Below are positions 1 through 14,207 of a stretch of DNA of 64,000 nt, in pieces (the first letter of the stretch is position 1; every line of letters begins with the position of its first letter). The notes under the pieces were generated by a model that worked only from the letters and a program-made list of their open reading frames with translations, was not told the origin of the DNA and ran no database searches. The translations under genes were made by a program, and so were the position numbers. Location: the sequence record DRR723986_6241. The stretch is one strand, 5' to 3'.

Positions 1-204
1 CGCATAGGCCTCATAGGCATACCACCACTGATAAATCCGCCAGGGTTTGTAAACTGGCGTGTCGCCCAGAATGAACCACGGACGTCCGATTGCGGCCTGA
101 TACTCAAGCGCAGCCGCAGCCCATTGCGTAGCTGCCCAAGTCGCACCAACAACTATCGCAAGAACGACAACGATCTGACCCAGAAGAATTTTGGTCGGCG
201 ACAT
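1..204 (-). CDS. traG: Conjugal transfer coupling protein TraG/VirD4, N-terminal part (runs off the left edge)
   Basis: Not in the ORF track. Manual translation from ATG at 204 gives MSPTKILLGQIVVVLAIVVGATWAATQWAAAALEYQAAIGRPWF...WWYAYEAYA, the typical N-terminus of Tn4371-family TraG. GGAG RBS upstream. Confidence 0.85.
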   Translation of the reverse strand, partial: MSPTKILLGQIVVVLAIVVGATWAATQWAAAALEYQAAIGRPWFILGDTPVYKPWRIYQWWYAYEAYA

Positions 205-430
205 GCGCACCACTCCAGACACTTGATCTGGAGTTTGTCGTCCATTTCACGGACTTCACAGTGTGATCAGCGGCCAATTCCCGACGCCACGCGCAGACGG
301 CACCAAAGCCACACATACTGAAGATATTACAAGATCAATAGACGGGAGTTATATCGCCAGTCGATCTGAAAAACCGATAGTGGGCCGTAAAATCGTCAAT
401 TCTGCTCTGGGCGCGACACTCTATATTGCT

Positions 431-874
431 TCACCGGAATATCCTCCCGAGAACCCGACGAAGCCATCTCACCTCTGATTGTTGCGCTGACGTATTCAGC
501 TCAGACGAAGGAGCGAGCGGCTTTTGCGGCTGCCGTCCCTTTGTGCGTCTCCATTCATCGCGGTGACGGCCAGCCGCAATTTGCTCTTCTGTCCAATCGT
601 TGGCCCATTGGATTCGATTCTTGGTGATTAGGTAGTGCGAGCGACACTCGAAGCCCCAATTTCCGACAGACGGCCGAATTGTAACAGATTTGCCATCGAA
701 CAATAGGTTCCAGTCTGTTGGATGAAGCGGAAGGACAACTTTACTACCACAGCCGCAGGCGCATTTATGTGCCGTCGTGGTGTACTCGATGGAAACATAG
801 AGAACTCCGGGCTCCAGATCCTTAGGAATGAAATCAACAAATTGAGGCGTCAGCTGATCGATAGATGAAGTCAT
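431..874 (-). CDS. DUF6527-like Cys/His-rich protein
   Basis: Motifs HKCACGCG, L.PTDW, PSVGNW..ECRSHY. Start chosen at MTSSID (ATGA overlap with the upstream stop at 871-874). Confidence 0.8.
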   Translation of the reverse strand: MTSSIDQLTPQFVDFIPKDLEPGVLYVSIEYTTTAHKCACGCGSKVVLPLHPTDWNLLFDGKSVTIRPSVGNWGFECRSHYLITKNRIQWANDWTEEQIAAGRHRDEWRRTKGRQPQKPLAPSSELNTSAQQSEVRWLRRVLGRIFR

Positions 875-2055
875 GCTGCCGTCCGGATAAGTGTGCGAGC
901 ATCGACTTGGTGTATCCAAACAGGATCGCCATGATCCGCATAAAAGCCTCGATGCGCCTTCCACAACTGTACCGCCATATCCGCGTTCATGCTGTTGAGG
1001 TCGGATACTTGTATATTCGCCATGTAAAGGCGGTCTTGGCTTGGATTATCGACTGGGATATGGGGAGCAACAGCCGATCGGTTCTCAGGCGTACTAAGCA
1101 CGGCGCGAAGCGTTCCGCCGAGACCATTTGGCGTCATATGCAGACCCATACCGACTTCTACAAAAGCAACCCCCATGGCGTCGAGCTTTGCGATAACGGC
1201 GGCCTTCGATGGGCCGGGATCCATGGCAAGAAATGCGAAAGTTACCCCATCCAAAAGGCTCACATTTTTCGCAGTCAGCGCGACAGCGTTGGGGATAATC
1301 CCATTTTTCATTTGGGCGTATCGGCCCGCGTGGTAGTCCACCTTCGGGCGCGGTGGTTGCAATTCTTCGCGCGCCGGCGCGCCCGGCGAGCGAAACGCAT
1401 TATGTGGGTAAAAACGATCATTGTCGAACAGGCGCGCCTCTTTGATCGGCGTTTTGCTTACATGGTCGAGTATGTACGCGCCGGTACCACCCAACCCTAC
1501 CAATGCAACAATCTCGCTTTTGAACAGTGCGGCGAGCTGCGTTGTCCCTGATCGCGCGGAAGCACTGTCAGGAAAGACGAATGCATCGTCCTCTGAATTC
1601 ATCGAAGGTAACGCGCCGACTTTCGGCGTTGCATTCTGATCAACAGCATGCACCTCGCCGAGGATAATGTCGACGTAGGTAACGACTTTCTCGTGGAAGT
1701 TTTTGTAGCTCCTCTGGCCTGATGCATCTCGCAGCTTGTTGGAGAAACCATGACTGATCTTCATATCGCCGAGTTGAGATGCACACGGACTTGTCTTGCC
1801 CAGAGCGCTTAATTCACGGCCATTTCTATCGCATGGCATGTCGCCTGAAAATGACATTATATGCGTTCTTGGCGGAACGGTTTGTTCTGCAGTTGCATCG
1901 AGGGGACAAACAAAGGCGCCGCGGCGGATATTCCCACTCGCGTCGAGATATGGAATTTCTTCAACCACAAGATGGCCTTCCGCAATACGGAGCGCATACC
2001 CCTCGATGGCGAGTTGGCGCAGGTCGGCGCTATGATTTATCAGTTGCTGAGACAT
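871..2055 (-). CDS. ThiF/E1-like adenylyltransferase with N-terminal E2-like (DUF6791-type) domain
   Basis: LVGLGGTG nucleotide-binding loop, LFDND...HNAFR motif, ~165 aa N-terminal extra domain. Start MSQQLINH at 2055 overlaps the Ubl gene. Confidence 0.85.
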   Translation of the reverse strand: MSQQLINHSADLRQLAIEGYALRIAEGHLVVEEIPYLDASGNIRRGAFVCPLDATAEQTVPPRTHIMSFSGDMPCDRNGRELSALGKTSPCASQLGDMKISHGFSNKLRDASGQRSYKNFHEKVVTYVDIILGEVHAVDQNATPKVGALPSMNSEDDAFVFPDSASARSGTTQLAALFKSEIVALVGLGGTGAYILDHVSKTPIKEARLFDNDRFYPHNAFRSPGAPAREELQPPRPKVDYHAGRYAQMKNGIIPNAVALTAKNVSLLDGVTFAFLAMDPGPSKAAVIAKLDAMGVAFVEVGMGLHMTPNGLGGTLRAVLSTPENRSAVAPHIPVDNPSQDRLYMANIQVSDLNSMNADMAVQLWKAHRGFYADHGDPVWIHQVDARTLIRTAA

Positions 2056-2707
2056 TGAAGACCATCCCCACGACGACGCGGACTTTACCGCCCTCAAGCA
2101 AAACGCCTTCGCGACGGCGCTTTGGGCCCCGCGAGAAGGAAACGGTGAAACAGATTTGATCGCGCCCAAAAAGATCAGGGAAAGCAAGTCTGGCGAGTTC
2201 ACCGAAAGTTAGCCGCCCCTTGTCAACGCTGATCATCTCGCCGTTCAAAATGATGTCGACGGTTTCATCCTTTGGCTCTCCTGACCGGATACGCTCAACG
2301 CCGTCCTTTTTGAGACGCACGCGCCCATCATCGTCGATCGACCGATCACCATCTGAGTCGAGAAATAAGTCTTGATCGTCCTGGACGTGCCCGATCGCGC
2401 GCAGATCAACCGAAGAAATCTCTTCATCGCCCCACAGCACTTCTCTTTCATTCAACAGTGCCCGAAAAAGGCGATCTCCCTTGAAGGCCCTGAAGATTAG
2501 CGGTTCGTCCGATTCGATGTTCACCAACTCGTCGAGGCCAATCGCTCTTGTACCGAAATCCTTGAACACGACGATTGAATAATCGGACGCCGGGCGAAAT
2601 GCGGCAAGGCTCAATAAGTCCCGACCGGATAGATTACCGTCTTCAGTAGTATAGATGCGATCGTTGACTACGACTTCGCGGCGGTTGTTTGAGGCAGGGT
2701 GGCCCAT
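2030..2707 (-). CDS. Multi-ubiquitin domain protein (three beta-grasp repeats)
   Basis: Three ~70 aa repeats beginning VVVND / ALLNE / IILNG, with patterns such as LSGRDLL and LTFGEL. GGAG RBS before ATG 2707. C-terminus ATDKS. Confidence 0.8.
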   Translation of the reverse strand: MGHPASNNRREVVVNDRIYTTEDGNLSGRDLLSLAAFRPASDYSIVVFKDFGTRAIGLDELVNIESDEPLIFRAFKGDRLFRALLNEREVLWGDEEISSVDLRAIGHVQDDQDLFLDSDGDRSIDDDGRVRLKKDGVERIRSGEPKDETVDIILNGEMISVDKGRLTFGELARLAFPDLFGRDQICFTVSFSRGPKRRREGVLLEGGKVRVVVGMVFNVSATDKS

Positions 2708-2783
2708 GGATTTCTCCAGTATGAGTTCGCCCACTCGCCGGGCTCAGCGAAGGTTGACTGAAAGCGCGCAGCATGATTCTAGT

Positions 2784-2839
2784 GTCTCACCGATAAGACG
2801 TTTCATGTGTGATGCGCAAACTGTCTCACTTATGAAACA
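2784..2839. promoter_or_regulatory. Three palindromic operator-like sites GTYTCA-N4-TGARAC in a divergent promoter
   Basis: GTCTCAccgaTAAGAC (2784-2799), GTTTCAtgtgTGATGC (2800-2815), TGTCTCActtaTGAAACA (2822-2839). Confidence 0.65.
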
Positions 2840-2893
2840 CATAGGAGGAACACCCATGACCTGTCAAGGGGCGCCTCGCGCGCCGCACAAGAA

Positions 2894-3229
2894 ATGAGTC
2901 TCAAAATTGAAAAGCTGGGAGAAATGGTCGTCGAGCGCAGGGGCACACTTGGCGTAAGAGCCGCGGCAAAAGCGATAGGAATAAGTCCAGCAACTCTATC
3001 GCGCATCGAGAACGGCCACGTCCCAGATCTGACCACCTTCGCCGCAATCTGCAGATGGCTTGATGAAGATCCGAATCTGTTTCTAGGTATGCAACCTTCA
3101 GACAAACAACGAGAATCGGCTACGGTTCACCTGCGCAAGCAGAAGACGACATCAGTCGACACCGCGCGCGCCCTTGGTGAAATGATCATCTCGGCGCAGC
3201 AAGCGCTCCGCGATATAGATCGTCTCTAA
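2894..3229 (+). CDS. XRE-family HTH repressor (CapH/DdrO-like)
   Basis: VRAAAKAIGISPATLSRIENG HTH plus short C-terminal domain. Directly upstream of a metallopeptidase gene. Confidence 0.85.
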   Translation: MSLKIEKLGEMVVERRGTLGVRAAAKAIGISPATLSRIENGHVPDLTTFAAICRWLDEDPNLFLGMQPSDKQRESATVHLRKQKTTSVDTARALGEMIISAQQALRDIDRL

Positions 3230-3231
3230 TC

Positions 3232-3789
3232 ATGCGGCGCGGCTTCAAGACACAAGCGGAAAAGCTCGCGCTCAGACACAGGTCCGCTTTTGGCGTCGAA
3301 CCGCACGAAAAGATCAATCCAAAAGCGTTTCTGGAGTCCATTGGTCTTGTAGTTTGGAAACCCGAAGACATTCCTGGAATCAGTCCTGACAGTCTGAAGC
3401 AACTCATGCAAAGCGACCCCGATGCTTGGTCTGGTGTCACCGTTCGAGAGGGTCCTCACACTGCCATTATTGTCAATTCAGTTCACCCACCGACGCGTCA
3501 GGCAAGTACACTTATGCACGAATGGGCGCATATTGAGCTACGACACAAACCCAGCCGGGCGGATCGGTCCGTGGGTGGATTGTTGCTTCTGAGCGATTAT
3601 CCCGCAGAGATTGAAGAAGAAGCCGATTGGCTTGCTGGCTGTATATTGGCGCCGCGTGAGGGACTTTTACATCTGTGCTCCCGAGGACTGAAAGCCAATC
3701 AAGTGGCTGTTCACTATGGAATTAGCCTGCAAATGTCCAACTGGCGGATCGGCAAAACCGGGGTGATGCGACAGCTCGGGATCAGATAG
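3232..3789 (+). CDS. ImmA/IrrE-family Zn metallopeptidase (CapP-like)
   Basis: TLMHEWAH (HExxH) and EEEADWLAGCILAP motifs. Confidence 0.9.
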   Translation: MRRGFKTQAEKLALRHRSAFGVEPHEKINPKAFLESIGLVVWKPEDIPGISPDSLKQLMQSDPDAWSGVTVREGPHTAIIVNSVHPPTRQASTLMHEWAHIELRHKPSRADRSVGGLLLLSDYPAEIEEEADWLAGCILAPREGLLHLCSRGLKANQVAVHYGISLQMSNWRIGKTGVMRQLGIR

Positions 3790-3897
3790 CCCAATCTATT
3801 GGCCCAAGATACATGACTGAGTATTCCAGTACGGGTTCTTGCTTACAATCTGTTCGGCCATGAATGGGCAATGTCTGCCATCCGGATTTAATGAGAT

Positions 3898-5841
3898 TCA
3901 TCTCCCAATGCCCCGCGATATACCTTTCTCAAGTGTCCAGGAAACCCCAGCGCCGACTCTTTTGACTTCAATTCCGCGTTCAAGATTTTGACTCAACTCC
4001 CGGCGCCAAGGCACAAGCACAAACTCCTTCCCATTCCCAATCACCGCCATACGCCCCTGCGCCAAGTCGACGGTCGTCTGCATCGTCCCGCGAAAGCTGC
4101 CCCCAGGCTGAAGCTCAGCCGCGCCCTGCCCCGTTCGCCGCGCGACATCTTTCGACGCCGTGAGCAATTCCTCCATTTTCAACTTAACCAATACTTCTTC
4201 CGAAACCCGTGCCTCGCTCTGCACCAGCACCCCCTGCCCGCGCAAAAAGTTCAGCCGCGCCCGTCTCTTGGCCGCCAATTCGACCTGTCCCATTCTCCCG
4301 TCTGAAGCATCGTCGAACGTATCAAGCCACGTCGCACCCGGATGTTCCAATTGGTCGCTCACGCTGATCCATGATCGAATAACGATTTGTGCGCCACCCG
4401 CGCGGGTTCGCTCAAACTCACCTGCACGCTCCAGAAAATCAGATCCAACTGACCACGACCCATCAGAATTCCGCATGACAACTCCCGCCCGCCTCAGCGC
4501 CTCCAGCCGCCGCTTGTGTGCGAGCCGATAGGCGGCGCTCGATCCCGGCTCTGCGGCTGCATGCAGCGCGTCAGAATAGATGCCGCCTGACCGCTCCGCG
4601 ATCCTCGCTATTGTTCGATCTGACGCACGCGGCTCGCCAATCGCGGTCGACACTTCGACAATCGCCCCTTTCGGCGGCATGCTTCCGGCACCAAGCCCGG
4701 CTGCATCAACATGCCAGGTCCCGCCATCGAACTCCCGCACGAGCAAATATCGCGTATCGCGCAATTCATCGGCTGGGCCTGATGCAATCACTTCCCCAAG
4801 AACGGGGCCCGTGCCCGGCGCCCTCGTCTCGAACATCTTCAGGTCATCGATCCGCGCCTGCGTGTGGGACGCCGACAAGGTCCGGATAAAATCCCCCCTG
4901 CGGCCCATCTGCCGAAGCGTATCGGCCCACCCCTGCTCCATCTGGTATTGACCGGCACTCATCCGCGATGCGAGCCGGAGACCTTCAAGATGCTTCAGCC
5001 GGGCAAGCTTGAGCGACCGCTGGAACCGGTCCGCACTCTTAGAGGGTGGCGGGATCGCGACAATCCCCTCACGCGCCTCGCTCAGCAGTTGACGATCAAT
5101 CCCTGTAAATCTGTCCTGGCTGATCTCGCTCTGACGGGCTCGCATGATCTCAAGATCCCGGCGAGGACCGAGCGTTTGGGTGACGAGGTCCTCCGCCTGC
5201 CGCCGCAGACCTTGTGTCAGGTATTCGCGGGCGATGACCAGGTCGCGTCCGAGCTGGTCCTTGCCCCGAATGACAATATGCGTGTGAGGATGGCCGGTAT
5301 TGTGATGATCGACAGCCAACCAGTCGAGGCGGGTTCCGAGGTCACTTTCCATCCGGTCCATGAGCTGACGCGTGTTCGATTTGAGATCACCCATCTGGTC
5401 GCCGTCTTCCGGCGATACGATGATCCGGAATTGGTGGCGGTCGCTTTCGCTGCGTTCGAGGAATTCCCGCGACCCAATCCCCTCTTCCCGTGAGGAATAC
5501 AATTCACCGCCACGCCCGTCCCGATCCACGCCGTCACGCTGGAGATATTTGAGATGGGCGTTGAAGGCTGCGCGCCCGGCGCCGGGTTTCGACCGGGCGA
5601 TATGCACTTTGACCGTGACACGCCGCATGCGATGTCGGGGCAGTCGCTGGCCTCGGACAGACGCCATGCGTCCTACCACCGCGCCGCGCCCATATCGGCT
5701 TCCGGTAAAGCCTGGCTTTCCCACCGGTTTCGCAAGGCGGGCAGCAACCTTCGTGACACGCTGCCGGAACCGCTTGCCACCTGCGGCGCCCACATCCCGG
5801 ATACGTCCCAGGCGCGGCGTGAAATCGTCCTCGCCGCTCAT
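3898..5841 (-). CDS. rlxS: MOBP relaxase RlxS/VirD2-like with DUF3363-type C-terminus
   Basis: HLKYLQRDG (catalytic Tyr), FRIIVSPEDG and HHNTGHPHTHIVIRG (HUH) motifs. Confidence 0.92.
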   Translation of the reverse strand: MSGEDDFTPRLGRIRDVGAAGGKRFRQRVTKVAARLAKPVGKPGFTGSRYGRGAVVGRMASVRGQRLPRHRMRRVTVKVHIARSKPGAGRAAFNAHLKYLQRDGVDRDGRGGELYSSREEGIGSREFLERSESDRHQFRIIVSPEDGDQMGDLKSNTRQLMDRMESDLGTRLDWLAVDHHNTGHPHTHIVIRGKDQLGRDLVIAREYLTQGLRRQAEDLVTQTLGPRRDLEIMRARQSEISQDRFTGIDRQLLSEAREGIVAIPPPSKSADRFQRSLKLARLKHLEGLRLASRMSAGQYQMEQGWADTLRQMGRRGDFIRTLSASHTQARIDDLKMFETRAPGTGPVLGEVIASGPADELRDTRYLLVREFDGGTWHVDAAGLGAGSMPPKGAIVEVSTAIGEPRASDRTIARIAERSGGIYSDALHAAAEPGSSAAYRLAHKRRLEALRRAGVVMRNSDGSWSVGSDFLERAGEFERTRAGGAQIVIRSWISVSDQLEHPGATWLDTFDDASDGRMGQVELAAKRRARLNFLRGQGVLVQSEARVSEEVLVKLKMEELLTASKDVARRTGQGAAELQPGGSFRGTMQTTVDLAQGRMAVIGNGKEFVLVPWRRELSQNLERGIEVKRVGAGVSWTLEKGISRGIGR

Positions 5842-5942
5842 CGCCTGTGCACCTGCTGACTCGCCGTCGCTTCAGGCAACTCAGCCAATCCTGTGCACCT
5901 CGAAAACCTGCAAGAGGCACCAAAAATCAGATGTGCAGACAA

Positions 5943-5983
5943 GGCACTAACCAGAGGTTGGTGCCACAGCTTTAATCTTGCCC
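5943..5983 (+). other. Candidate oriT (inverted repeat followed by IncP-like nic site)
   Basis: GGCACTAACC-aga-GGTTGGTGCC inverted repeat, then TAATCTTG^CCC, resembling the RP4 nic TATCCTG^CCC. Lies between traF and the relaxase. Confidence 0.6.
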
Positions 5984-6047
5984 TACCGGGTCCGCTGACC
6001 AGATCCTTGCTCACGCTTGCATCGCCTTGACCCCGCTTGCGCCGGGT

Positions 6048-6548
6048 TCACCTAATTCGTTTCCAGAGGAGGACGGCAACGCCGTCCAGGTCTTCGCGTT
6101 TTGTCGGGCCGAAGTATCGGCCATCAAGCGAGCGCGGATGCGGATTCAGGAGAAACACGTCATCGTCTTTCAACACGACGCAGCCGCTCCACGCCGGCAA
6201 AACGCGACCCAGATGATCGACAGACAGTGCTGTCGCGACGTGCTTTGCGTTCACAGAAATGAGTTCCCCATGCCTGCAGGCTTCATCGCCGGACATAGCC
6301 GCAATCTGCTTGATCAGTGGCCAGTCCTGCCCAACAAATCCCTTCGCCTCGGCCCATTCCGCTTCACGGCTCCTGGCTGAGATGACGACCCATCGCCCAT
6401 GGGTGAAGGGGGCGTCACTCAGCCAGTAGAGACCTTCTGGCGCGCTACCGGTACGGTTCCAGATCAGCCTTGCCTGAGGATCGAAGATGAAGCCAATCAG
6501 GCCGATCAGGACTGCACCGGAGGCGACAATCGCCGGCGCTTTTCTCAT
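6048..6548 (-). CDS. traF: S26-family conjugative peptidase TraF
   Basis: WNRTGSAPEGLY, LIKQIAA and SLDGRYFGP motifs. Confidence 0.9.
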   Translation of the reverse strand: MRKAPAIVASGAVLIGLIGFIFDPQARLIWNRTGSAPEGLYWLSDAPFTHGRWVVISARSREAEWAEAKGFVGQDWPLIKQIAAMSGDEACRHGELISVNAKHVATALSVDHLGRVLPAWSGCVVLKDDDVFLLNPHPRSLDGRYFGPTKREDLDGVAVLLWKRIR

Positions 6549-6787
6549 TTCGTGCGCTGAACACGTGAGGAGGTTGACGAGAACATCTGCGCTTCCGACC
6601 AGGCGAGAAGGCTTGCCCTTGTATAGAAAACGCGGGTGCCGTGCTTGCGATAGATCGGCCCGCGTCCTTCGCAGCGATAATGATCGAGCGTCGACCGCTT
6701 CAGCCGCAGGAATGCGGCTGCTTCCACAACGTTGAAAAGGTCATTGTCATTGGCCGCCATGGGCAGTGTCTTGTCCTGATCATTCAT
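6545..6787 (-). CDS. Excisionase/RdfS-like HTH protein
   Basis: EAAAFLRLKRSTLDHYRCEGRGP.YRKHG.RV.Y. Upstream of traF-rlxS as in rdfS operons. AAGGAG RBS. Confidence 0.8.
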   Translation of the reverse strand: MNDQDKTLPMAANDNDLFNVVEAAAFLRLKRSTLDHYRCEGRGPIYRKHGTRVFYTRASLLAWSEAQMFSSTSSRVQRTK

Positions 6788-6965
6788 CGGTATCTCCTTT
6801 CCTGAGGTTTTGTCCGATGCGATCAGAATGCCGCTTGCTGCGCCGATTTTGAGAGGAAAAATGCGCCCCCGCAATTTTCCCCCGCCGAATTTACCATGCG
6901 GCAGACACGCGAAAGCCGCCCCGGAGAATATCTCCGGAGCGGCTCCGAGGCGATGGAATTGAAAC

Positions 6966-7289
6966 CTAGTCCCGCGGGTTCCAGAGGATCACGTGGCGGC
7001 CTTTCTTGCCTTTGACGGGGGCGAGATTTGCGTAGATCTTGCACGGGCCGATCTGCGGGTCCGCGAGGGTGATCGAGACATAATCGCGTCCGGAGGCTTT
7101 CGCCTTTCGCATCCATCCGCCACCGATTTCTGTCGAGGTTTCTCCGGCGAAGATTCGGTAGTCGGGCTGACCTTCTGCCGCTTTCTCACCGTTCTTCTCG
7201 ATGCGGATGGGGCTTGTGAGGTTCATCATTGCGAGGGCGCCTTCGAAGCCGGTTTTGGTCTCAGAGACATATCCAAGTGCGTTTGCCAT
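6966..7289 (-). CDS. DUF736 family protein
   Basis: QPDYRI...IGGGW...DYVSITLADP motif. Start MANALG after a GAAAGGA RBS. Confidence 0.85.
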   Translation of the reverse strand: MANALGYVSETKTGFEGALAMMNLTSPIRIEKNGEKAAEGQPDYRIFAGETSTEIGGGWMRKAKASGRDYVSITLADPQIGPCKIYANLAPVKGKKGRHVILWNPRD

Positions 7290-7323
7290 TGTGTGGTTCC
7301 TTTCGTTATTGCGCTTGTCCCGG

Positions 7324-7537
7324 GGACCCCTTGTCCCCGTCGACGCCGGACCGCCCGGACGGCGCAGGACGGGTTTGAACCGCTTGCGGGCGAAACGCAG
7401 TGGAGCACCGGCGCGGCGATGAATTTTGATCCGCGAGGAGCCGCAAAGCGGCGGGGAAAATTCTTGCGCCCGGGCCGGTTTCACAGCCCGGCAGGCGTCG
7501 TCCAGGTCACACGGCAAGAGACGGGGACAAGGGGTCC
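7324..7537. repeat. Long nested inverted repeat (putative ssDNA hairpin)
   Basis: 18-bp perfect arms GGACCCCTTGTCCCCGTC / GACGGGGACAAGGGGTCC, plus several internal complementary segments. Confidence 0.75.
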
Positions 7538-7744
7538 GATACGCGAGGTTACGAAAACGGATGGAACCAGACTGGCAGACAATTCCGGATGCAAGGCGAA
7601 ACCCAAAGACGGGCGTTTTTTTGGCGCCCTCACCCATGAAACAGCTCTGCCAACAGTCCCTCAGCATGAGAGAATGATACGGGAAAGCCGCCCGATGCCT
7701 GGCACCGGACGGCTCGCGATCCGCCTGAAAAGGAGACTGAATCC

Positions 7745-9517
7745 TCAGGCGGCGTTTGGCTCTGCGAAAGTCTCCGCATCTGGCTGAGAATTGTCTGGGC
7801 CATCCTCAAACAGACTTGCAATCCGGGCCCAGGCATCAGCAGGCGCAGACCCCGCCCCTTCCACAAGGCGGGCTGGCGGCACTTGCATCCACCCCGGTCG
7901 CCAGTCGGGATTGGGCTCACAAGCCTCGCCAATGATCCGGTGCCCGATGAGAGTCTTCTGCACTTTGGCCGTATCGGTGACGCAGGTTGCCGCCAAAGAG
8001 TCAGACCCAATGTCCGCCACCATCGCGTTGATCGCCCGCTTGTCGCGGCAGAGGTCGAAAAAGGCCGGTTCCGGCTTCCAGCGGGCTGACAGGTCCGTCT
8101 CGCAAACATGCAGAACGGCCTCAACCACCGCCCCGCCTGCTTCCAGTGTCTCTGCCATGGTAAAGGCCAGAACCTCACCCACTTCCGCGTCCGACATGGC
8201 GAGCAAGGCGGCGAAGATTTCGCAAAGGCGATAGGCGTCGCCATTGCGCCGCGCCTCCCCGGACACGTTCATCGCTCCAAACAGGCTTTTCACACGCTCG
8301 CGTTTCGCTGCCATGTCGGCTACAGCTGTCGACGCCTCAAGGCTCGCCCGCGTGGCGTCCTTTCGGCTGCTGCATTCATGCGCCCGGATCGTCCAGAGCG
8401 CGCTGCCGGTCATGGCATGGGCCACCATCAGGCGCAGCGCGATAGCGGGCTGGGCGACGAGGCTCGCCTGCGCCGCCCCATGGCGGTGCAGCAGGATATA
8501 TTCAGCAAGCGGGCCGGACATTTCAGGTTTGACGGGCGCGGACGATGCGTCGTCTGCGCCGCGCTTGTCCTTCTCCCGACGCCGCGCCTCAGCCTGTGAA
8601 ATATAGCCTTCATGGAAGGTCACGCTGCCGTCATGGCGAAGCTCGACAAACACCTTGCCGCCCTGCGTCTTCGTCTTGCTTAGATGGTCCCAGCGCTGGA
8701 AATACTGCCCTCGCTCAAGGCAGACCACGTCCATCCAGCCCTCGGCGAGATAAGCTTCAATACGCTGCGCGACGACAGCCGACTGCGAAGTCCAGAAGGC
8801 GTCCGCGTCGGCAAACACGCCATGCTCACCAAACAGGTCGGCGGTTATCAGGCCGTCATAGCCTGCCAAGTCAAACAGAGCCTTTTCGGTGGTGATAATC
8901 GCCCCGCCCGTGATCCACGCCTTGCAGTTCCGGCCCATCGGCGCGCGCTCGTACTCGCTATCGAACAGGCGAAGCCATTCTGCCTGTTGGTCTTGCGTCG
9001 CGAGCGTCAACGCCCGGATCGTCTCGCGGTCGATCTCGTCTTCGGCATAGAGTTTGCGGATGGGCTCGGCGAGCGAAGCCAGCGCCAGCACACGTCGTAC
9101 CAGAAGCAGAGTGACGCCGAAGAAGGCGGCGATATCCTCGACCTCGCGGCCTTCATCATGCAGGCGCTTGAAGGCTGTGTATTGCTCCATTTCTGAAGCA
9201 GGCAAGCGTCCAACATTCTCGATGACGGATGCCGCAATCGCACTGGCGGCATCTTCCTCGCGCATGATTGCGCACGGCACCATGGGCGGTTTGCCGGCCT
9301 CCTTCTCGATCTCCTTCAGGGCAAAGAACCGCCGCCGTCCGGCAACGACGCCATAGTGATCGCCTTCACGGCGCACCAGCAGAGTCTGGCGAATGCCGCT
9401 CTCACGAATGGACGGCAGAATATCGGACACGTTCGGCTTCTTGCGTCCTTGTCGCATGTTGAGTTTGGAAATCCGAAGCTCGGACAGTGGCAAGGATTTG
9501 AGGATAGGCTGGGCCAT
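7745..9517 (-). CDS. parB: ParB/RepB/Spo0J-like protein (ICE leading-region type)
   Basis: ParB N-domain VVAGRRRF, ENVGR, and HTH. Start MAQPIL after GGAGG. Confidence 0.88.
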   Translation of the reverse strand: MAQPILKSLPLSELRISKLNMRQGRKKPNVSDILPSIRESGIRQTLLVRREGDHYGVVAGRRRFFALKEIEKEAGKPPMVPCAIMREEDAASAIAASVIENVGRLPASEMEQYTAFKRLHDEGREVEDIAAFFGVTLLLVRRVLALASLAEPIRKLYAEDEIDRETIRALTLATQDQQAEWLRLFDSEYERAPMGRNCKAWITGGAIITTEKALFDLAGYDGLITADLFGEHGVFADADAFWTSQSAVVAQRIEAYLAEGWMDVVCLERGQYFQRWDHLSKTKTQGGKVFVELRHDGSVTFHEGYISQAEARRREKDKRGADDASSAPVKPEMSGPLAEYILLHRHGAAQASLVAQPAIALRLMVAHAMTGSALWTIRAHECSSRKDATRASLEASTAVADMAAKRERVKSLFGAMNVSGEARRNGDAYRLCEIFAALLAMSDAEVGEVLAFTMAETLEAGGAVVEAVLHVCETDLSARWKPEPAFFDLCRDKRAINAMVADIGSDSLAATCVTDTAKVQKTLIGHRIIGEACEPNPDWRPGWMQVPPARLVEGAGSAPADAWARIASLFEDGPDNSQPDAETFAEPNAA

Positions 9518-9564
9518 TGCATGGGCCTCCTTTGATGAATTGATTGAAGAGGTCAGGCGCGCAC

Positions 9565-10083
9565 TCATGTGCGCGCCTCAAGATTCGAGAGGGTCGCACA
9601 AAGACGCTGTGCGGCCCGGCGACCGATCGCGAGAGCGTCGGGAAGAAGGTCATCTGCGACGTCCGTCAGATATCCATTATCCGAACCCGGATAATTGGCC
9701 TCGACGCCCCACAGGCTGATGGCGTGTTCGTCCAGTATGACACCGTCCAGCGATACCGAGAGGACTATGCCGCAATAGAACCAGTCGCCGCGCCGCCATG
9801 CCTCCATAATCGCCTCGGCTTCGGCCTGCGCCTTGGCAAAGCGTTCCCGGAAATTGTTTCCGGGGCCGATGAACCCCGGCTCATCCTTGTAGAGGGATGG
9901 CCAGAATCCGTCCTGGCGTCCCTCGGGAAAACGCTCCACTGGAGCGTTTTCTGATCCTCGGAACTCCGGCGCATCCGGGCTATCGTCGCGCACAATGCGC
10001 GCGACGATCCGGAACCCGTCCTGTTCGCAAGCGATGCAATCGCCCTCGCATACGAACGTGTCAAAGCGTTCCGTGAAAGCCAT
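9565..10083 (-). CDS. Conserved ICE hypothetical protein, carrying an in-frame palindromic insert
   Basis: Intact ORF coupled to ardA. Contains the palindrome at 9927-9951. Confidence 0.7.
   Translation of the reverse strand: MAFTERFDTFVCEGDCIACEQDGFRIVARIVRDDSPDAPEFRGSENAPVERFPEGRQDGFWPSLYKDEPGFIGPGNNFRERFAKAQAEAEAIMEAWRRGDWFYCGIVLSVSLDGVILDEHAISLWGVEANYPGSDNGYLTDVADDLLPDALAIGRRAAQRLCATLSNLEART
9927..9951. repeat. Short palindromic element copy 1
   Basis: GAAAACGCTCC-act-GGAGCGTTTTC, perfect 11-bp arms. Confidence 0.8.
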
Positions 10084-10085
10084 CT

Positions 10086-10652
10086 CTAACGGCTCCAGAA
10101 CACGTGGACTTCATCAAAGCCCGTCTGGAACACCATGATCTCACCATTGAGGGCCATGTCGCGGGCGAGCGCCTGCCAGTCGATATAGTATTTGAGGCTT
10201 TCCGGTATCGCTGTGCCGGTCTCATCGTGCAGCTCTTCGGCAAAGTCCGCCGCGCTGCGGAATTCTCCGGCGTAATCCTCGAACGCGGCGCGCGCCTGCT
10301 CAAGATCGTTGCCGAACTGGCTGTAGAGCTTCGCGCCAAGCGCGCTATGTTCCTCAATGAAGTCTGCAAGCTCGCACACGGTGTCGAAGCTGGCCCATTC
10401 GGAAATCCGGCAACCTTCGAACCCTTCGTAATCGTGAATCGCCCATTCGTCCGCCTCCGGTTCCGGCGAAGCGGCGAGCATCTCGCGCACTCGTTGCCAG
10501 ACTTCGTGCGGATCGGTGGCATCAATCCAGCGCCCATGCAGGCGGCCATTATTGTAGGCGGCAAGGCAAGCCACGTAGATACGGGGACGGTCTGGAACCG
10601 TGAGAGCGGTAGCTGTTCCAAGGGGCGTAGCGGTTGTAATTTGGTCAGTCAT
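10086..10652 (-). CDS. ardA: Antirestriction protein ArdA
   Basis: RIYVACLAAYNNGRLHGRWID, EWAIHDYEGF and YIDWQALARD motifs. Very acidic. Confidence 0.92.
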   Translation of the reverse strand: MTDQITTATPLGTATALTVPDRPRIYVACLAAYNNGRLHGRWIDATDPHEVWQRVREMLAASPEPEADEWAIHDYEGFEGCRISEWASFDTVCELADFIEEHSALGAKLYSQFGNDLEQARAAFEDYAGEFRSAADFAEELHDETGTAIPESLKYYIDWQALARDMALNGEIMVFQTGFDEVHVFWSR

Positions 10653-10702
10653 GTCAGTCTCCTTTGCGCCGCCCGGCGTTCTTTCCCGCATCAGGCGGGG
10701 GT

Positions 10703-11303: not shown

Positions 11304-12557
11304 TCAGACGCGTCCAAGCAAGCTCTCCGCCCGCCCTGACACCAATCCTTGAACTCCCGCCATCGCCTCCCGCTCGCCCGTCTCCAGTTCAAACCCTGCC
11401 GCCACCTTACCTGCCTTTTCGAGCACCAGCCCGCACAATGCCTTCACCCGGCGCCGGATGAATGGCTCGGTCAGCCCTGTCTCTTCGGCAAACCTGGCCC
11501 AGTCCCGCACCTGGATGTCTTCCAATGCAGCCCGCTTCGCAATCTTCATCGCGAGCCGTGGACTGAGCTCGGGATAAGCGACGGTCGAAAGGAGATCATA
11601 GAGCGGTGCGAGCTCTGTGCTGCCATTGTAGAGAAGGCTGTAGTTCTTCCCGTGCGCGTCGGCATTGCCGATGATCAGATTGAAGATTGCCGCATCGAAG
11701 AGTTTGAGCACTTCGATGGCGGGCCGGGTCGTCACGCGCCGCAGGAGCGTGAACAGATCGCGGAACACCGGGCCTCCATCCGAGGCGTATTTGCGTGCTG
11801 ATGTGAACCCGAGCGCCTGACAGAAATCCTCCTGATGCAGGCGCGCAACCACGCCGTCCTCACCTGTCACGCGGTCATAGCGCCGGACGAGCAGGAAGGG
11901 CGCGCCTCCGGCCCTGTGGATCTCGACCTCGGCCACCTGGAGCCCGATCAGGTGCGCAAGCCGCATCCCATAGGCCTCATTTTCCGTCGTGCCCTCGAAC
12001 CGGGTGATGGGAGGTTTCAGAATGTGCGTTGTCGGCTGGCCCGGCGCTGGGAGCGCGATTCCATCCGGCGTCAGGATGACAGGGAGTTTCGCCTGGGCGC
12101 CGGCCAGCGAGAGTCGCAGCCCCTCTTCGCCGGCCAGCATGGGGCGCTTCGGCAGGGAGTCGATCAGGACGCGCAGCTCTTTGTCAGACAGAAGCTTTGG
12201 CTTGAACGGCCCCTCTATAGCAGGCGGCTCTTCGCCTTCCGGCCAGAGCGCCAGAGCCCCCGCGACTTCCCCGCCCAGCATTTCAAGCAGGCGGAATTCA
12301 TTCCGCTCAGAGACGCCGAGCGCGGCAGCCACGTTTTCTCGCTGGCTCTCCTCAGGCAGGATACCCTCGAAGAAGGGCAGGCATTCGCGCCGGGAATACG
12401 GCTCCTCCCGCAAAGGCAGGGACACGGAAATGGCCCGAGCATCGCTCCGGGCAAGCCAGGCGGGCAGATAGGCAAATCCCAATTCGCCATGCACATCGAC
12501 CGACAGGGTCCCGACCGCATCCCTCCCCCACCAGAGCGTCAGTGCGCGCGTGGTCAT
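11304..12557 (-). CDS. hipA: HipA-family kinase toxin
   Basis: LSLAGAQAK, HQEDFCQ, GNADAHGKNYS and LAPLYD motifs. ATGA overlap with hipB. Confidence 0.93.
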   Translation of the reverse strand: MTTRALTLWWGRDAVGTLSVDVHGELGFAYLPAWLARSDARAISVSLPLREEPYSRRECLPFFEGILPEESQRENVAAALGVSERNEFRLLEMLGGEVAGALALWPEGEEPPAIEGPFKPKLLSDKELRVLIDSLPKRPMLAGEEGLRLSLAGAQAKLPVILTPDGIALPAPGQPTTHILKPPITRFEGTTENEAYGMRLAHLIGLQVAEVEIHRAGGAPFLLVRRYDRVTGEDGVVARLHQEDFCQALGFTSARKYASDGGPVFRDLFTLLRRVTTRPAIEVLKLFDAAIFNLIIGNADAHGKNYSLLYNGSTELAPLYDLLSTVAYPELSPRLAMKIAKRAALEDIQVRDWARFAEETGLTEPFIRRRVKALCGLVLEKAGKVAAGFELETGEREAMAGVQGLVSGRAESLLGRV

Positions 12558-12772
12558 CGGCGATCCTCCGGTGTTGTGATGGTCAGCGCGCAACCGAGGG
12601 CCGACAGGACATCGAGCATTTTACCGATTTGCGCGGTCGGCTTGCCGCGTTCGAGCTCGACAAGAAAGCGCAGGCCAACGCCCGAGGCTGCGGCGAGCTC
12701 AGGCTGACGCAGACCTTGGGCCTTGCGTGTCTTTCGAATGAGGTGGCCAATTTCTTCTGGTGTCATGTGCAT
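12554..12772 (-). CDS. hipB: HipB-like HTH antitoxin
   Basis: RKAQGLRQPELAAASGVGLRFLVELERGK. Directly upstream of hipA. Confidence 0.88.
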   Translation of the reverse strand: MHMTPEEIGHLIRKTRKAQGLRQPELAAASGVGLRFLVELERGKPTAQIGKMLDVLSALGCALTITTPEDRR

Positions 12773-12939: not shown

Positions 12940-13062
12940 TTGGTTTAAAATCTGCCTCAAACACTCACCCATAGTGAGTGTTTCTGGACACTTTCAAACC
13001 TGTTCTTCGTGAGAGCACCCGAGGACAGCACAATTGAACCGGGCCGCGCTGCGGACGCCCCC

Positions 13063-13911
13063 TCAAGCCGCCTCCTGATACGGCCCCAATTGTCCGCCCA
13101 GCAGTTCGATCAGATAGCCGCCATCGCGCAGGCCTTCAGCCTTGTTCACGAGGTACTTGATCGCATCCTTCATGATGCCCCGGTCATCGGCCCAATCTGC
13201 ATCGACAGCGTCCTGACCGTAGAGCACACCGGCGATCTCACGCCGGCTCATGCCGAGCTCAAGGCAATCGAGCACGATCAACCCATCCCGCAGGATCTGG
13301 GTCCGCTTACTCCAGAGCGGGGTCTGCCTGTCGAAGTCATCGCCATAGATTTCAAAAGCCTCGCGCTGGACTTTCAGTTTCTTCTCATAGGCATCCATGT
13401 CGGAAATCGTGAGCTTCATGCGTATCTTCTCCATGCCGAGAAGAGAGAGCCCCGTGCAGCGCACCTGCGCAACACAGCCATTTCCCCGCAAAAGGAAGAC
13501 CTCCCGGCCCTGCCGGTCGGTCAGATGCGTGATCCTGCAATGCGGGACCGTGCGATCCCAGATCCCGCAGACTTCACCTTCGGAACGCGGACTGCAATGG
13601 ACCTCGACCTGGTCGGGATGAACGGGGTGGCTCCAGAAGACATCGGCGTCAAATCCGTTCTTGTCCGGATCGGGCATGATCATCAGTCCCCAGCGTTCGG
13701 CAAGAGTCTGAGGGACACGCGCCCGCAGCAGCCGGATGGGGGCACAGGGCGCGGTCATTTCAGAAATGTCTTCGTCGCCCCGTGTCGCGGCATCGCGCCT
13801 GAACTCAGGATTTCTACGAAGATATTCCCAGGCCCACCGATCAGACGACAGGCGCCAGAGATAATCATAACGGGTCAGCACCCGATCGGATTTCAGCGTG
13901 TAAGTCTTCAT
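13063..13911 (-). CDS. FseA-like transcriptional activator (DUF6499 + DUF2285)
   Basis: AWEYLRRN motif in the N-terminus and C-terminal HTH (GMSRREIAGVLYG...GGY). Confidence 0.8.
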   Translation of the reverse strand: MKTYTLKSDRVLTRYDYLWRLSSDRWAWEYLRRNPEFRRDAATRGDEDISEMTAPCAPIRLLRARVPQTLAERWGLMIMPDPDKNGFDADVFWSHPVHPDQVEVHCSPRSEGEVCGIWDRTVPHCRITHLTDRQGREVFLLRGNGCVAQVRCTGLSLLGMEKIRMKLTISDMDAYEKKLKVQREAFEIYGDDFDRQTPLWSKRTQILRDGLIVLDCLELGMSRREIAGVLYGQDAVDADWADDRGIMKDAIKYLVNKAEGLRDGGYLIELLGGQLGPYQEAA

Positions 13912-14207
13912 TCCCACACTCCCTTCGAAAGGGAAAATTGCAACGTGAGTGCCAGCAGGCGCCACCAGAAGGTGCGAATGTCTTAAGAAACGAGGCCCTG
14001 TTGTTAAGATATCGGCAGATTGAGGCGGTTATCGGCTCCTCCTCGATTCACGCTTTTTTCCATTCAGGCGATCGCCCCCCGAACAGGCGCACTTGGCCCG
14101 GTCTGCGCGGCGCTGCTGCGCCCTGCCCGAATTGGCCCGGCGTCCAACTCCCCGAGCACACCGCCAGCGATGATGATGGCGATGACCAGACAGAAAGGCC
14201 CTGCCTC

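Follow-up and report, generated by a model that had tools for sequence, protein, structure and literature searches.

The closest described systems are the Bub operons. Ye, Gong, Chambers and Corbett characterized Type II Bub (formerly 6E.2/DUF6527) biochemically, and their preprint reports the solved structures PDB 9ea4, 9ea5, 9eae, 9eav and 9cd2 (bioRxiv 10.1101/2024.11.21.623953). According to this preprint, the Type II system performs conjugation in vitro, with oxyesters formed on E1 (Ubl~Tyr) and on E2 (Ubl~Ser), and DUF6527 is a Ser-His protease whose domain is specific to Bub operons. An earlier note on the DNA analysed here knew of no biochemical characterization of such operons, which these data correct. 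Type I operons are described in the same preprint as having Ubl-E2 and JAB-E1 fusions, with a cleavage that exposes a C-terminal Gly. The E2 accessory residues are given there as His and Asp in Type I and as Lys and His in Type II. Most Bub operons are reported from defence islands, accompanied by regulators of the defence type (bioRxiv 10.1101/2024.11.21.623953; PMC13373217), and the preprint counts CapH and CapP with 168 of 544 operons. Protection against phage had been demonstrated for no Bub operon as of June 2026 (PMC13373217).

We analysed a stretch of 64,000 nucleotides from sequence record DRR723986_6241, referred to as the window. Five genes at 431-3789 very probably make up an intact operon of the Type II Bub kind that includes a repressor/protease switch and that a conjugative element carries as cargo in a known variable slot. 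We are also highly confident that this low-GC cassette was placed in the relaxase-traG slot of an element of the Tn4371/ICEMlSym type. Type II Bub was known before this copy, which adds one more instance. For every published Bub catalytic residue, there was a counterpart in the window proteins.

Gene content and layout of the cassette

bubA, bubBD and bubE were located on the minus strand, and the HTH and peptidase genes were divergent from them on the plus strand. bubA and bubBD overlapped by 26 nt, and bubBD and bubE by 4 nt (ATGA). The earlier note had called the genes translationally coupled; the overlaps were found, and they are consistent with coupling. Of 59 loci retrieved from other genomes, 58 had the order bubA-bubBD-bubE, so the arrangement was not due to chance. 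One locus, L001, contained the same five-gene cassette with 62-77% amino-acid identity. Unlike in the window, it was positioned past the 3' end of traG, adjoining rplU/rpmA, which meant that the cassette was a portable unit.

The remaining descriptive claims of the earlier note were borne out. Pfam found Multi_ubiq, DUF6791, ThiF (below its cut-off) and DUF6527, and no JAB domain was detected in any of the five genes, which set the operon apart from Bil. The XRE and HExxH genes were divergent as described, the cassette lay between the relaxase gene and traG, and its GC content was lower than that of the backbone (0.530 or 53.0% at 223-3897 vs 0.618 or 61.8% at 3898-24000). On the left edge of the cargo, the spacer between bubE and traG (223..430, 208 nt) had no homology-supported ORF, and no repeat pair joined it with the right edge. 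The right edge was the spacer between the peptidase and relaxase genes (3790..3897, 108 nt). The PADLOC 2.0 check proposed in the earlier note gave a partial result: capP matched the peptidase (5.9e-8), E1-E2 models of the Cap2 type matched weakly (best 6.1e-5), and BubA and BubE had no match.

The three genes and their order were identical to those of the Type II operon of E. coli ZDHYS365, which also has a DUF6527 BubE and no JAB. The E. coli operon is reported in a tRNA-inserted island, whereas the window copy was in a conjugative element, and the regulator pair was described for the window copy only in this comparison. Bil resembles the window operon in combining Ubl, E1 and E2 for conjugation and in lying on mobile or defence DNA. 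However, Bil has a separate E1 and E2 with a catalytic Cys, a JAB peptidase and, as reported, proven anti-phage activity, none of which applies to the window operon.

BubA

bubA (2707..2030, minus strand) encoded a 225-aa triple beta-grasp Ubl (Ubl3). The start ATG at 2707 was preceded by GGAG and was backed by the N-termini of homologues in alignment A2. Pfam matched Multi_ubiq (1.1e-23) in three stretches. Residues 10-225 aligned with PDB 9cd2, the Type II BubA of E. coli ZDHYS365 (phmmer E 1.6e-18), and the AF2 model (pLDDT 89.9) gave 9cd2 as the best Foldseek match at 3e-20, with a low identity of 23%. The next matches were the Citrobacter and M. brachiatum multi-ubiquitins, polyubiquitin and ISG15. 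Some BilA proteins are Ubl3 like BubA (8u38 match). The earlier note had made its reading depend on predicted folds; the beta-grasp fold was found for BubA, and the E2 fold of BubBD was not independently confirmed.

The C-terminus of BubA was Asp-Lys-Ser, not Gly, and the TDKS end was common with 9cd2. Since the stop codon makes the C-terminal Ser directly, no JAB-type processing would be needed. D78 and E138 corresponded in the alignment to D73 and E136 of E. coli. In A2, E138 was invariant and D78 reached at least 90% conservation. Both side-chain ligands of the intra-dimer Ca2+ site reported for BubA were thus kept, and Ca2+-dependent dimers or filaments are probable given these residues. 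The Type I system of Citrobacter sp. RHBSTW-00271 (BubAB, BubCD and BubE; 9ea4, 9ea5, 9eae, 9eav and 9d59) shares with the window a Ubl3-type BubA, the conserved Ca2+ site, the BubE family, the Tyr/Ser oxyester logic and the E1 fold (Z ~22). In contrast to Type I, the window had a standalone Ubl, an E2-E1 fusion, no JAB and a C-terminal Ser.

BubBD

bubBD (2055..871, minus strand) encoded 394 aa, with an E2-like DUF6791 domain (approximately 1-147) and a ThiF-type E1 half (approximately 148-394). The Pfam match was 1.8e-38 for DUF6791 and 3.5e-5 for ThiF, the latter with 23.5 bits under a gathering cut-off of 28.1 bits. H65, S105, K107, R222 and Y344 were invariant among 35 homologues (40-84% identity), and there was no invariant Cys among them. 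The Type II signature given in the preprint is an invariant Ser, Lys and His, with S106, R219 and Y342 in E. coli (bioRxiv 10.1101/2024.11.21.623953). Mapped by position and invariance, S105, R222 and Y344 probably correspond to these three residues. The E. coli protein is also an E2-E1 fusion, in which the Ser/Lys/His set, the Arg and the Tyr occupy almost the same positions. R222 aligned with the Arg that serves adenylation in Citrobacter BubCD.

The AF2 model of BubBD had a pLDDT of 88.7, and 338-344 was the sole internal stretch below 50, which would fit a mobile crossover loop. The E1 half matched Citrobacter BubCD (Foldseek 1.8e-12, Z 22.2) and ThiF (Z 21.8). MoeB, MccB and PaaA matched nearly as well as BubCD, and Atg7 and other E1s were also among the matches. 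In the model, residues 1-147 followed the order helix, four strands, active-site loop and long helix. A PDB search with a profile of this domain gave neither an E2 nor a BubB, the matches of the domain in the atlas were DUF6791 clusters only, and the structure-search matches of the protein were filled by the E1 half. Secondary-structure order and motif suggest the E2-like assignment.

These matches bear on two other readings. One is a ThiF/MoeB/MccB-like adenylating system that serves sulfur transfer or peptide modification and conjugates no protein. The similar scores of these enzymes and the BubA end, which is not Gly-Gly, would agree with it. However, the 225-aa triple beta-grasp BubA was homologous to E. 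coli BubA, reported to be conjugated covalently by BubBD in vitro, the fused DUF6791 domain had the invariant Ser/Lys/His set, the dedicated protease BubE was always linked, and no sulfur-relay or biosynthetic genes were nearby. We therefore regard it as highly improbable. The other is a thioester-based system of the type seen in Bil or in CBASS Cap2/Cap3, which is even harder to believe. The Ubl/E1/E2 logic is common to both kinds, and the weak Cap2-type matches and Atg7 point in that direction. Against this stood the missing invariant Cys, the five genes without JAB, the absence of a CD-NTase from the cassette, the best matches in both sequence and structure, which were Bub proteins, and the reported restriction of DUF6527 to Bub operons.

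BubE and the proposed conjugation cycle

bubE (874..431, minus strand) encoded a 147-aa DUF6527 protein (Pfam 4.7e-24), a predicted Zn-binding Ser-His protease. Among 55 unique homologues, each of C38, C40, C42, C77, S69 and H80 was conserved in 53-55, and all six residues were invariant in a second set (22/22). Two serines, S69 and S79, were invariant, and S69 was chosen between them as the likely nucleophile. The C-terminal tail was basic and amphipathic. The tails of homologues were hydrophobic and basic, as in the published description (bioRxiv 10.1101/2024.11.21.623953). BubE is the "Cys/His-rich protein" of the earlier note, and by analogy it would carry out the deconjugation that is left to a JAB peptidase in other systems.

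By homology with the published Bub work, the E1 half of BubBD would adenylate the C-terminal Ser carboxylate of BubA. Tyr344 in the flexible crossover loop would accept BubA as a Ubl~Tyr oxyester. In the E2-like half, Ser105 would next take over BubA with the help of Lys107 and His65. From the resulting Ubl~Ser oxyester, BubA would be attached to target amines. BubE, with its C4 zinc site and Ser69-His80 dyad, would strip BubA from targets, and its tail may anchor it at the membrane.

Divergent regulators

The capH-like gene (2894..3229, plus strand) encoded a 111-aa XRE-family HTH repressor (HTH_3 7.8e-9, HTH_31 1.9e-7) with 77% identity to its L001 counterpart. The capP-like gene (3232..3789, plus strand) encoded a 185-aa M78 (ImmA/IrrE) Zn-metallopeptidase (Peptidase_M78 7.2e-11), and the PADLOC capP match covered profile positions 21-146 of 242. 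The HExxH motif was H96/E97/H100, plus E129, and the positions matched those of Thauera CapP. As in CBASS CapH/CapP, the XRE-HTH gene was followed by the M78 HExxH gene, divergent from the operon under control.

The peptidase was a short form without a GAF domain, 185 aa compared to 288 aa for canonical CapP, which is reported to sense ssDNA using this domain (bioRxiv 10.1101/2022.04.27.489752; 10.64898/2026.05.16.725639). Its end coincided with the start of the GAF domain in E. coli CapP (residue 182), so half of the ssDNA groove was absent. Residue 113 was Ser, which meant that there was no Cys switch, and the 108-nt spacer downstream left no space for a GAF-coding remnant. A shortened peptidase and the low GC content of evidently foreign DNA could be read as a decayed, non-functional remnant. 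This is very unlikely, since the five ORFs were intact with end-to-end homologue matches, all catalytic residues were present, and the short form made up a large subfamily in nature, for which 529 representatives were found at E <= 1e-10 (<=211 aa in 148 of the best 150).

Between bubA and the capH-like gene was a divergent regulatory region (2708..2893). It was 72% identical to that of L001, compared to 62-70% for the flanking coding DNA. An 18-bp imperfect palindrome at 2822-2839, with related repeats at 2783-2799 and 2800-2812, resembled an operator, and TTGACA at 2867-2862 on the minus strand is a candidate -35 element of the bubA promoter. A consensus promoter scan of 2708..2893 found no promoter. 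A putative upstream ORF (2856..2897, plus strand) had 13 codons, an AGGAGG Shine-Dalgarno sequence and a stop overlapping the capH-like start (ATGA). Its length, position and overlap were the same in L001, and its coding is unproven because only two sequences were available and the opposite-strand -35 box lies inside it.

The palindrome at 2822-2839 is most likely the site at which the HTH protein represses the bubA promoter, and cleavage of this protein by the M78 peptidase would lift repression. In ImmR/ImmA of ICEBs1 and IrrE/DdrO of Deinococcus, a repressor is likewise cleaved by an M78 peptidase, and ImmA-type proteins are short and ICE-borne. Neither pair controls a Ubl operon; their targets are excision or DNA repair genes. 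Because the GAF domain was absent, the inducing signal of canonical CapP is not simply transferable; without the Cys switch as well, induction by DNA damage is not assured. Possible triggers are ssDNA or DNA damage sensed in some other way, or an ImmA-like input. The earlier note had called the operon stress-regulated and a candidate for defence. The HTH/M78 pair was present, but both terms went further than a peptidase without the ssDNA-sensing domain and the phage record of Bub operons allow.

Conjugative element and cargo slot

The transfer operon (3898..6874, minus strand) was identified by Pfam and by a gene order matched in related loci. It comprised an rdfS-like HTH_17 gene (6545-6874), a traF S26 peptidase gene (6048-6548), a 58-aa ORF (5838-6014) and an RlxS-type relaxase gene (3898-5841; DUF3363 2e-98 and a Relaxase domain). 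On the other side of the cassette was the 5' end of traG (1..222, minus strand), encoding a type IV coupling protein and running past the window edge. Its 74-aa fragment gave nothing in Pfam by itself and was 49-63% identical to TraG-type N-termini of seven related loci; the homologue in L088 matched T4SS-DNA_transf (2.2e-105). This gene order has been described for Tn4371/ICEMlSym-type ICEs, and Tn4371-family elements have rdfS, traF, relaxase, variable cargo and traG, with cargo differing by element (PMC2789088). The window contained neither an integrase gene nor an att site or a tRNA gene, a megablast search of the plasmid collection gave no match, and ICE status is not proven.

Eleven related relaxase loci were compared at this slot. 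traG was 149-205 nt downstream in 2/11, lower-GC cargo of 3.2-5.9 kb was present in 5/11, and no traG was found within the stretch fetched in 4/11. Judging from these loci, the slot is a cargo hotspot.

The slot also bears on whether the Bub operon has a role other than phage defence, such as service to the conjugative element itself (for example in its entry, excision, establishment or competition with other elements) or a general stress response. We consider such a role possible but rather unlikely. In its favour, none of the Bub operons is on record as protecting against phage, and the preprint leaves a stress response open; the cassette lay inside the transfer region, the peptidase belonged to the short ImmA-like size class and not to the ssDNA-sensing three-domain CapP, and one related slot (L095) held the non-defence set TetR/SDR/MFS/LysR. 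However, another slot (L089) held CBASS (HTH, M78, SMODS and patatin), two (L088 and L092) held restriction-like or MazG-type genes, and the L001 cassette was outside the transfer genes. The reported association of Bub operons with defence islands and defence-type regulators pointed the same way.

The relaxases of the compared elements were only 35-57% identical. The trb genes of Tn4371 come after traG, whereas the trb operon of the window (13.9-23.3 kb) was divergent and on the other side.

Gene organization of the cassette

The cassette was composed of three genes on the minus strand and two divergent genes on the plus strand. bubA (2707..2030, 225 aa) was preceded by GGAG before its ATG, and it was followed by bubBD (2055..871, 394 aa) and bubE (874..431, 147 aa). 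The genes overlapped by 26 nt at the bubA/bubBD junction and by ATGA at the bubBD/bubE junction. A longer form of bubA starting at GTG 2734 was rejected, as the N-termini of homologues gave it no support. On the plus strand, the HTH gene (2894..3229, 111 aa; HTH_3 in Pfam, 7.8e-9) was followed after 2 nt by the M78 peptidase gene (3232..3789, 185 aa; Peptidase_M78 in Pfam, 7.2e-11). The GC content was 0.530 in 223-3897, compared with 0.618 in 3898-24000. The earlier note had described a coupled trio divergent from an XRE/HExxH pair, placed between rlxS and traG and poorer in GC than the backbone. This description was borne out in all points by the open reading frames, the Pfam matches and the GC content.

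The trio as a Type II Bub operon

The families expected for the trio were all matched in Pfam. BubA was a stand-alone ubiquitin-like protein with Multi_ubiq in three stretches (1.1e-23). BubBD combined a putative E2-like domain at the N-terminus and an E1 adenylation domain at the C-terminus in a single protein. It matched DUF6791 (1.8e-38, at residues 59-212 of the 443-aa open reading frame) and ThiF, the latter under its gathering score (3.5e-5). BubE was a DUF6527 protein (4.7e-24). On all criteria that can be tested from the sequence, the trio is a Type II Bub operon. The name Bub was given by Ye, Gong, Chambers and Corbett to the operons formerly called '6E/DUF6527' (10.1101/2024.11.21.623953).

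The tagging chemistry of this locus would be that of its homologues. In the same study, a Tyr in the crossover loop was invariant among Bub E1s, and a Ser was invariant among Bub E2s. The intermediates are oxyesters because the E1 uses Tyr and the E2 uses Ser. BubA and BubBD of E. coli ZDHYS365 gave covalent products in vitro, which were abolished by R219A, Y342F and S106A, and BubE was described as a weak Zn-dependent Ser-His protease that strips conjugates in cells (10.1101/2024.11.21.623953). According to an EMBO J article of June 2026 (PMC13373217), phage protection had not been demonstrated for Bub operons.

The cassette differed from two related systems. Bil has the JAB peptidase BilC and separate Cys-dependent E1 and E2 proteins, whereas none of these features was present in the cassette. 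The absence of a JAB peptidase, by which the operon had been set apart from Bil in the earlier note, was confirmed, since none of the five cassette proteins matched a JAB family at E <= 0.01 in Pfam. Type II CBASS (Cap2/Cap3) combines a CD-NTase and an effector with a JAB peptidase and an E2-E1 protein, and the cassette did not fit this composition. SMODS/CD-NTase gave no match at E <= 0.01 in Pfam among the six products scanned, namely the relaxase and the five proteins of the cassette. As a further intact example of a Type II Bub operon, the trio adds little new biology.

BubA

BubA residues 10-225 aligned with E. coli ZDHYS365 BubA as deposited in the PDB (9cd2) at E 1.6e-18, and the terminal TDKS was common to both proteins. 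An AF2 model built with 35 homologues had a pLDDT of 89.9 and contained three beta-grasp-like units. The top Foldseek match of the model was 9cd2 (3e-20), followed by the Citrobacter and Methylobacterium multi-ubiquitins. Lower matches were polyubiquitin, USP7 Ubl arrays and ISG15. The beta-grasp fold proposed for the ubiquitin-like protein was thus recovered in the predicted structure.

Triple beta-grasp 'Ubl3' proteins are reported to form Ca2+-dependent dimers and filaments (10.1101/2024.11.21.623966). BubA D78 and E138 aligned with E. coli D73 and E136, the two residues whose side chains bind Ca2+ at the published intra-dimer site. In the alignment of BubA homologues, D78 was conserved in at least 90% and E138 was invariant. 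A separate acidic stretch, Asp-Ser-Asp-Gly-Asp, was observed at BubA 117-121 (DNA about 2345-2359). It was missing from E. coli BubA, and its D117, S118 and D121 were conserved in at least 90% of this BubA clade. This stretch could be an extra cation site.

The C-terminus of BubA was Asp-Lys-Ser right at the stop codon, not Gly, and the E. coli protein ended in the same way. In Type I BubA, a C-terminal Gly is reported to be exposed by JAB cleavage, whereas the Type II protein here had Ser at the stop codon. Among the 35 homologues from the protein search, 31 ended in DKS and 32 in Ser. At 2030-2055, bubBD began within bubA, its first 8 codons sharing their DNA with the last 8 codons of bubA in a different frame. 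The DKS ending and the 26-nt overlap were also invariant in 58 of 58 Bub loci from other genomes, a count that is biased because the pattern used for fishing these loci lies in the same DNA; only the protein-search set counts for conservation of the C-terminus. We had considered the 11 residues after G214 as a cleavable tail. This was dropped, because the E. coli protein and 31/35 homologues ended alike. No discussion of the Type II C-terminus was found in the main text of Ye et al. (10.1101/2024.11.21.623953).

BubBD

The search for BubBD relatives gave 4556 at E <= 1e-5 among 8000 candidates scored. An alignment of 35 relatives with 40-84% identity had invariant columns that included H65, F104, S105, K107, R222 and Y344, and it contained no invariant Cys. 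When 25 sequences of the N-terminal domain were aligned, H65 and S105 were again invariant and K107 was conserved in at least 90%. C75 was also invariant there, and it was variable in the broader 35-sequence alignment. S105, K107 and H65, with no invariant Cys in the 35-sequence alignment, corresponded to the published Type II E2 signature of an invariant Ser with Lys and His. R222 aligned with the adenylation Arg of Citrobacter BubCD, which was the best, but weak, match among PDB sequences (E 0.05).

The AF2 model of BubBD had a pLDDT of 88.7. Its one internal stretch below 50 was 338-344, which ended at Y344. This fits a mobile crossover loop in the model. For the E1 half, BubCD was the best match in Foldseek (1.8e-12) and in VIA (Z 22.2, rmsd 3.2 over 215 residues, model 168-388). 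ThiF (Z 21.8) and other E1s were less than 1 Z unit behind BubCD.

The N-terminal half was less readily placed. Foldseek and VIA searches with the whole model returned E1 matches alone, the lists being filled by the E1 half. An HMM of the N-terminal domain, made from the 25-sequence alignment, detected neither an E2 nor a BubB chain in the PDB; its best match was an unrelated recombinase (E 0.052). A search of the ESM Atlas returned DUF6791 clusters alone. The evidence for an E2 fold of BubBD 1-147 consisted of the order of secondary-structure elements and the Ser/Lys/His signature, which were compatible with it.

BubE

In BubE, C38, C40, C42, C77, S69, S79 and H80 were kept in 53-55 of 55 unique sequences, and the misses came from two truncated copies. 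All seven were invariant in a 22-sequence alignment. The residues for a predicted C4 zinc site and Ser-His dyad were therefore present, with S69 and S79 as the candidate Ser. The C-terminal tails were basic and hydrophobic, in agreement with the published description. No relative of BubE was found by sequence in the PDB, which agreed with the statement of the Bub paper that no structure exists.

The HTH/M78 pair and the divergent region

The HTH repressor gene adjoined the M78 HExxH peptidase gene and was located beside the promoter side of the bub operon. The HExxH motif was H96/E97/H100 with a Glu at 129, and these positions were as given for Thauera CapP. The capP model of PADLOC matched with 5.9e-8, spanning profile positions 21-146 of 242. 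E. coli CapP is described as having a peptidase domain (1-141), an HTH-like domain (142-182) and a GAF domain (182-288), with a groove for ssDNA between the peptidase and GAF domains, to which W196, Y264 and W280 of GAF contribute (10.64898/2026.05.16.725639). In contrast to this canonical three-domain form, the peptidase here stopped at 185 and was GAF-less.

Between the peptidase gene and the relaxase gene, 108 nt were left. The orthologue in L001, a comparison locus with the same five genes, was likewise 185 aa. Among the best 150 of 1134 peptidase representatives (E <= 0.001), 148 were at most 211 aa, and the longest was 244 aa. The length of the orthologue and of these representatives indicated that the 185-aa peptidase was no truncation. 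In addition, the Cys switch was not present, residue 113 being Ser. The Cys-switch loop is optional in CapP, where 134 of 408 are reported to carry it. The earlier view of a CapH/CapP-type pair was thus retained for the HTH/M78 pair beside the operon promoter, as found by Pfam and PADLOC. It did not extend to canonical CapP, under which the peptidase was not filed because it was GAF-less and had Ser at 113.

By analogy with CapP, the peptidase most likely acts by cleavage of the repressor. The GAF-less subfamily would sense either ssDNA differently or something else. A further reading, to which we give very little credence, is that the GAF-less peptidase and its HTH partner would read a signal tied to the element, and not the free ssDNA from DNA damage that canonical CapP reads. 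Such a signal may be the single strand formed as an intermediate of transfer, the activity of the relaxosome, or a host input of the ImmA-like kind. Bub would then be turned on at entry or induction of the element, and it would modify proteins of the element, of the host or of rival elements. If true, this would be the first biological role for the Bub family, outside classical phage defence. With a Bub copy on an alphaproteobacterial conjugative element, transfer, excision, DNA damage and phage infection can all be considered as triggers in their natural context.

The divergent region of 186 nt contained an 18-bp imperfect palindrome at 2822-2839 and related repeats. A candidate -35/-10 for bubA, identified by eye, adjoined the palindrome and repeats, and a consensus promoter scan of the region gave nothing. 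The region was 72% identical to that of L001, compared with 62-70% for the coding parts, which suggests that it is under constraint. A 13-codon upstream open reading frame with a strong Shine-Dalgarno was observed at 2856-2897 (+), and its stop codon overlapped the HTH start codon. L001 had an open reading frame of the same length with the same overlap at about 3474-3433 (-). It may serve translational coupling, or its presence may merely follow from the -35 box on the opposite strand. When the HTH and peptidase proteins were searched with tblastn against 59 Bub loci from other genomes, both were found in 2, and a third locus matched with the peptidase alone; the query was insensitive, and these counts are no estimate of frequency.

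The conjugative backbone

The right neighbour of the cassette was a relaxase gene (3898..5841; DUF3363/MobA-VirD2 in Pfam). This gene was preceded, in the same orientation as in one operon, by a 58-aa open reading frame, an S26 TraF peptidase gene and an HTH_17 RdfS-like gene. The left neighbour was the 5' end of traG (1..222), which was 49-63% identical to TraG-type N-termini in seven related loci. This fragment alone gave no match in Pfam, and one of its TraG-type homologues had T4SS-DNA_transf (2.2e-105). The backbone also carried DUF736, a ParB-like gene, ArdA, a HipA kinase gene and the trbB-I operon.

The order rdfS-traF-rlxS-variable region-traG together with trbB-I corresponded to the gene content of Tn4371/ICEMlSym-type ICEs. 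However, the trb operon was located on the side opposite to its place in Tn4371. No tRNA gene was found in the window, and the open reading frames scanned included no integrase. The ICE assignment is therefore based on which genes are present and on their order. When 1-9600 was compared with plasmids by megablast, no match was obtained.

Several other genes were observed on this stretch. The antirestriction gene ardA was located at 10086-10691 (-; 3.2e-46), and the HipA-type toxin kinase gene at 11304-12593 (-; HipA_C, 1e-51). For two backbone open reading frames, at 9565-10083 (-, 172 aa) and 13009-13986 (+, 325 aa), no Pfam family was found. Metabolic genes followed beyond about 24 kb. The catabolic and transport genes in 24267-64000 included those for an FAD monooxygenase, an FAA hydrolase, a BCCT transporter, a carboxylesterase and a TPR-sulfotransferase, and also a TonB receptor, a CoA ligase and transferase, and hydantoinase B.

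The relaxase-traG slot and portability of the cassette

In Tn4371-family ICEs, adaptive genes are reported in a variable region from the relaxase gene to traG (Ryan et al. 2009, PMC2789088), and variability of this slot has thus already been described. A relaxase search of 401 genomes from the class of L001's genome gave matches in 19 at E <= 1e-50, at 27 places. Eleven of the 27, the best full-length matches, were compared. In two of the 11 loci, the relaxase gene was followed by traG at a distance of 149 or 205 nt, and 3.2-5.9 kb separated the two genes in five. In the other four, traG was not found in the stretch examined. The slot was lower in GC than the rest of the locus in all seven loci with traG.

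The contents of the slots differed among the related elements. The slot of L089 (3967-9286) carried an HTH gene and a gene for a 307-aa M78 peptidase, divergent from SMODS (CD-NTase) and patatin genes, which is CBASS. In L088 (3754-9652), DUF6119, an MmeI-like N6 methyltransferase and a PIN protein were encoded. The slot of L092 (2926-8538) had an M78-I42 (M78-chagasin-like) fusion, a C1 peptidase, UDG and MazG_C, and that of L095 had TetR, SDR, MFS and LysR. L091 (3755-6963) encoded two proteins, of 553 and 340 aa, for which Pfam gave no family. The slot accepts varied, often defence-type, cargo. By analogy, CBASS with the same type of switch in the slot of a related element supports a defence-type role of the Bub cassette, without proving it.

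None of these related relaxase-traG gaps carried Bub genes. In L001, the same five-gene cassette, with 62-77% amino-acid identity, followed traG (3' end) and a small RHH gene and lay beside rplU-rpmA. Since the copy in L001 sits elsewhere and the slots of the other elements are without Bub, the cassette was regarded as a portable unit. No direct or inverted repeats bracketed the cassette, and nothing therefore pointed to its origin from a transposon or IS.

A separate observation was made among the Bub loci from other genomes. The loci L017 and L018 came from records named Pontibacter and Amaricoccus (HB172049 and HB172011), which belong to different phyla. Each was a contig of 92,608 bases, and the Bub locus had identical coordinates and scores in both. 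This identity looks like cross-contamination or a mix-up between the two assemblies.
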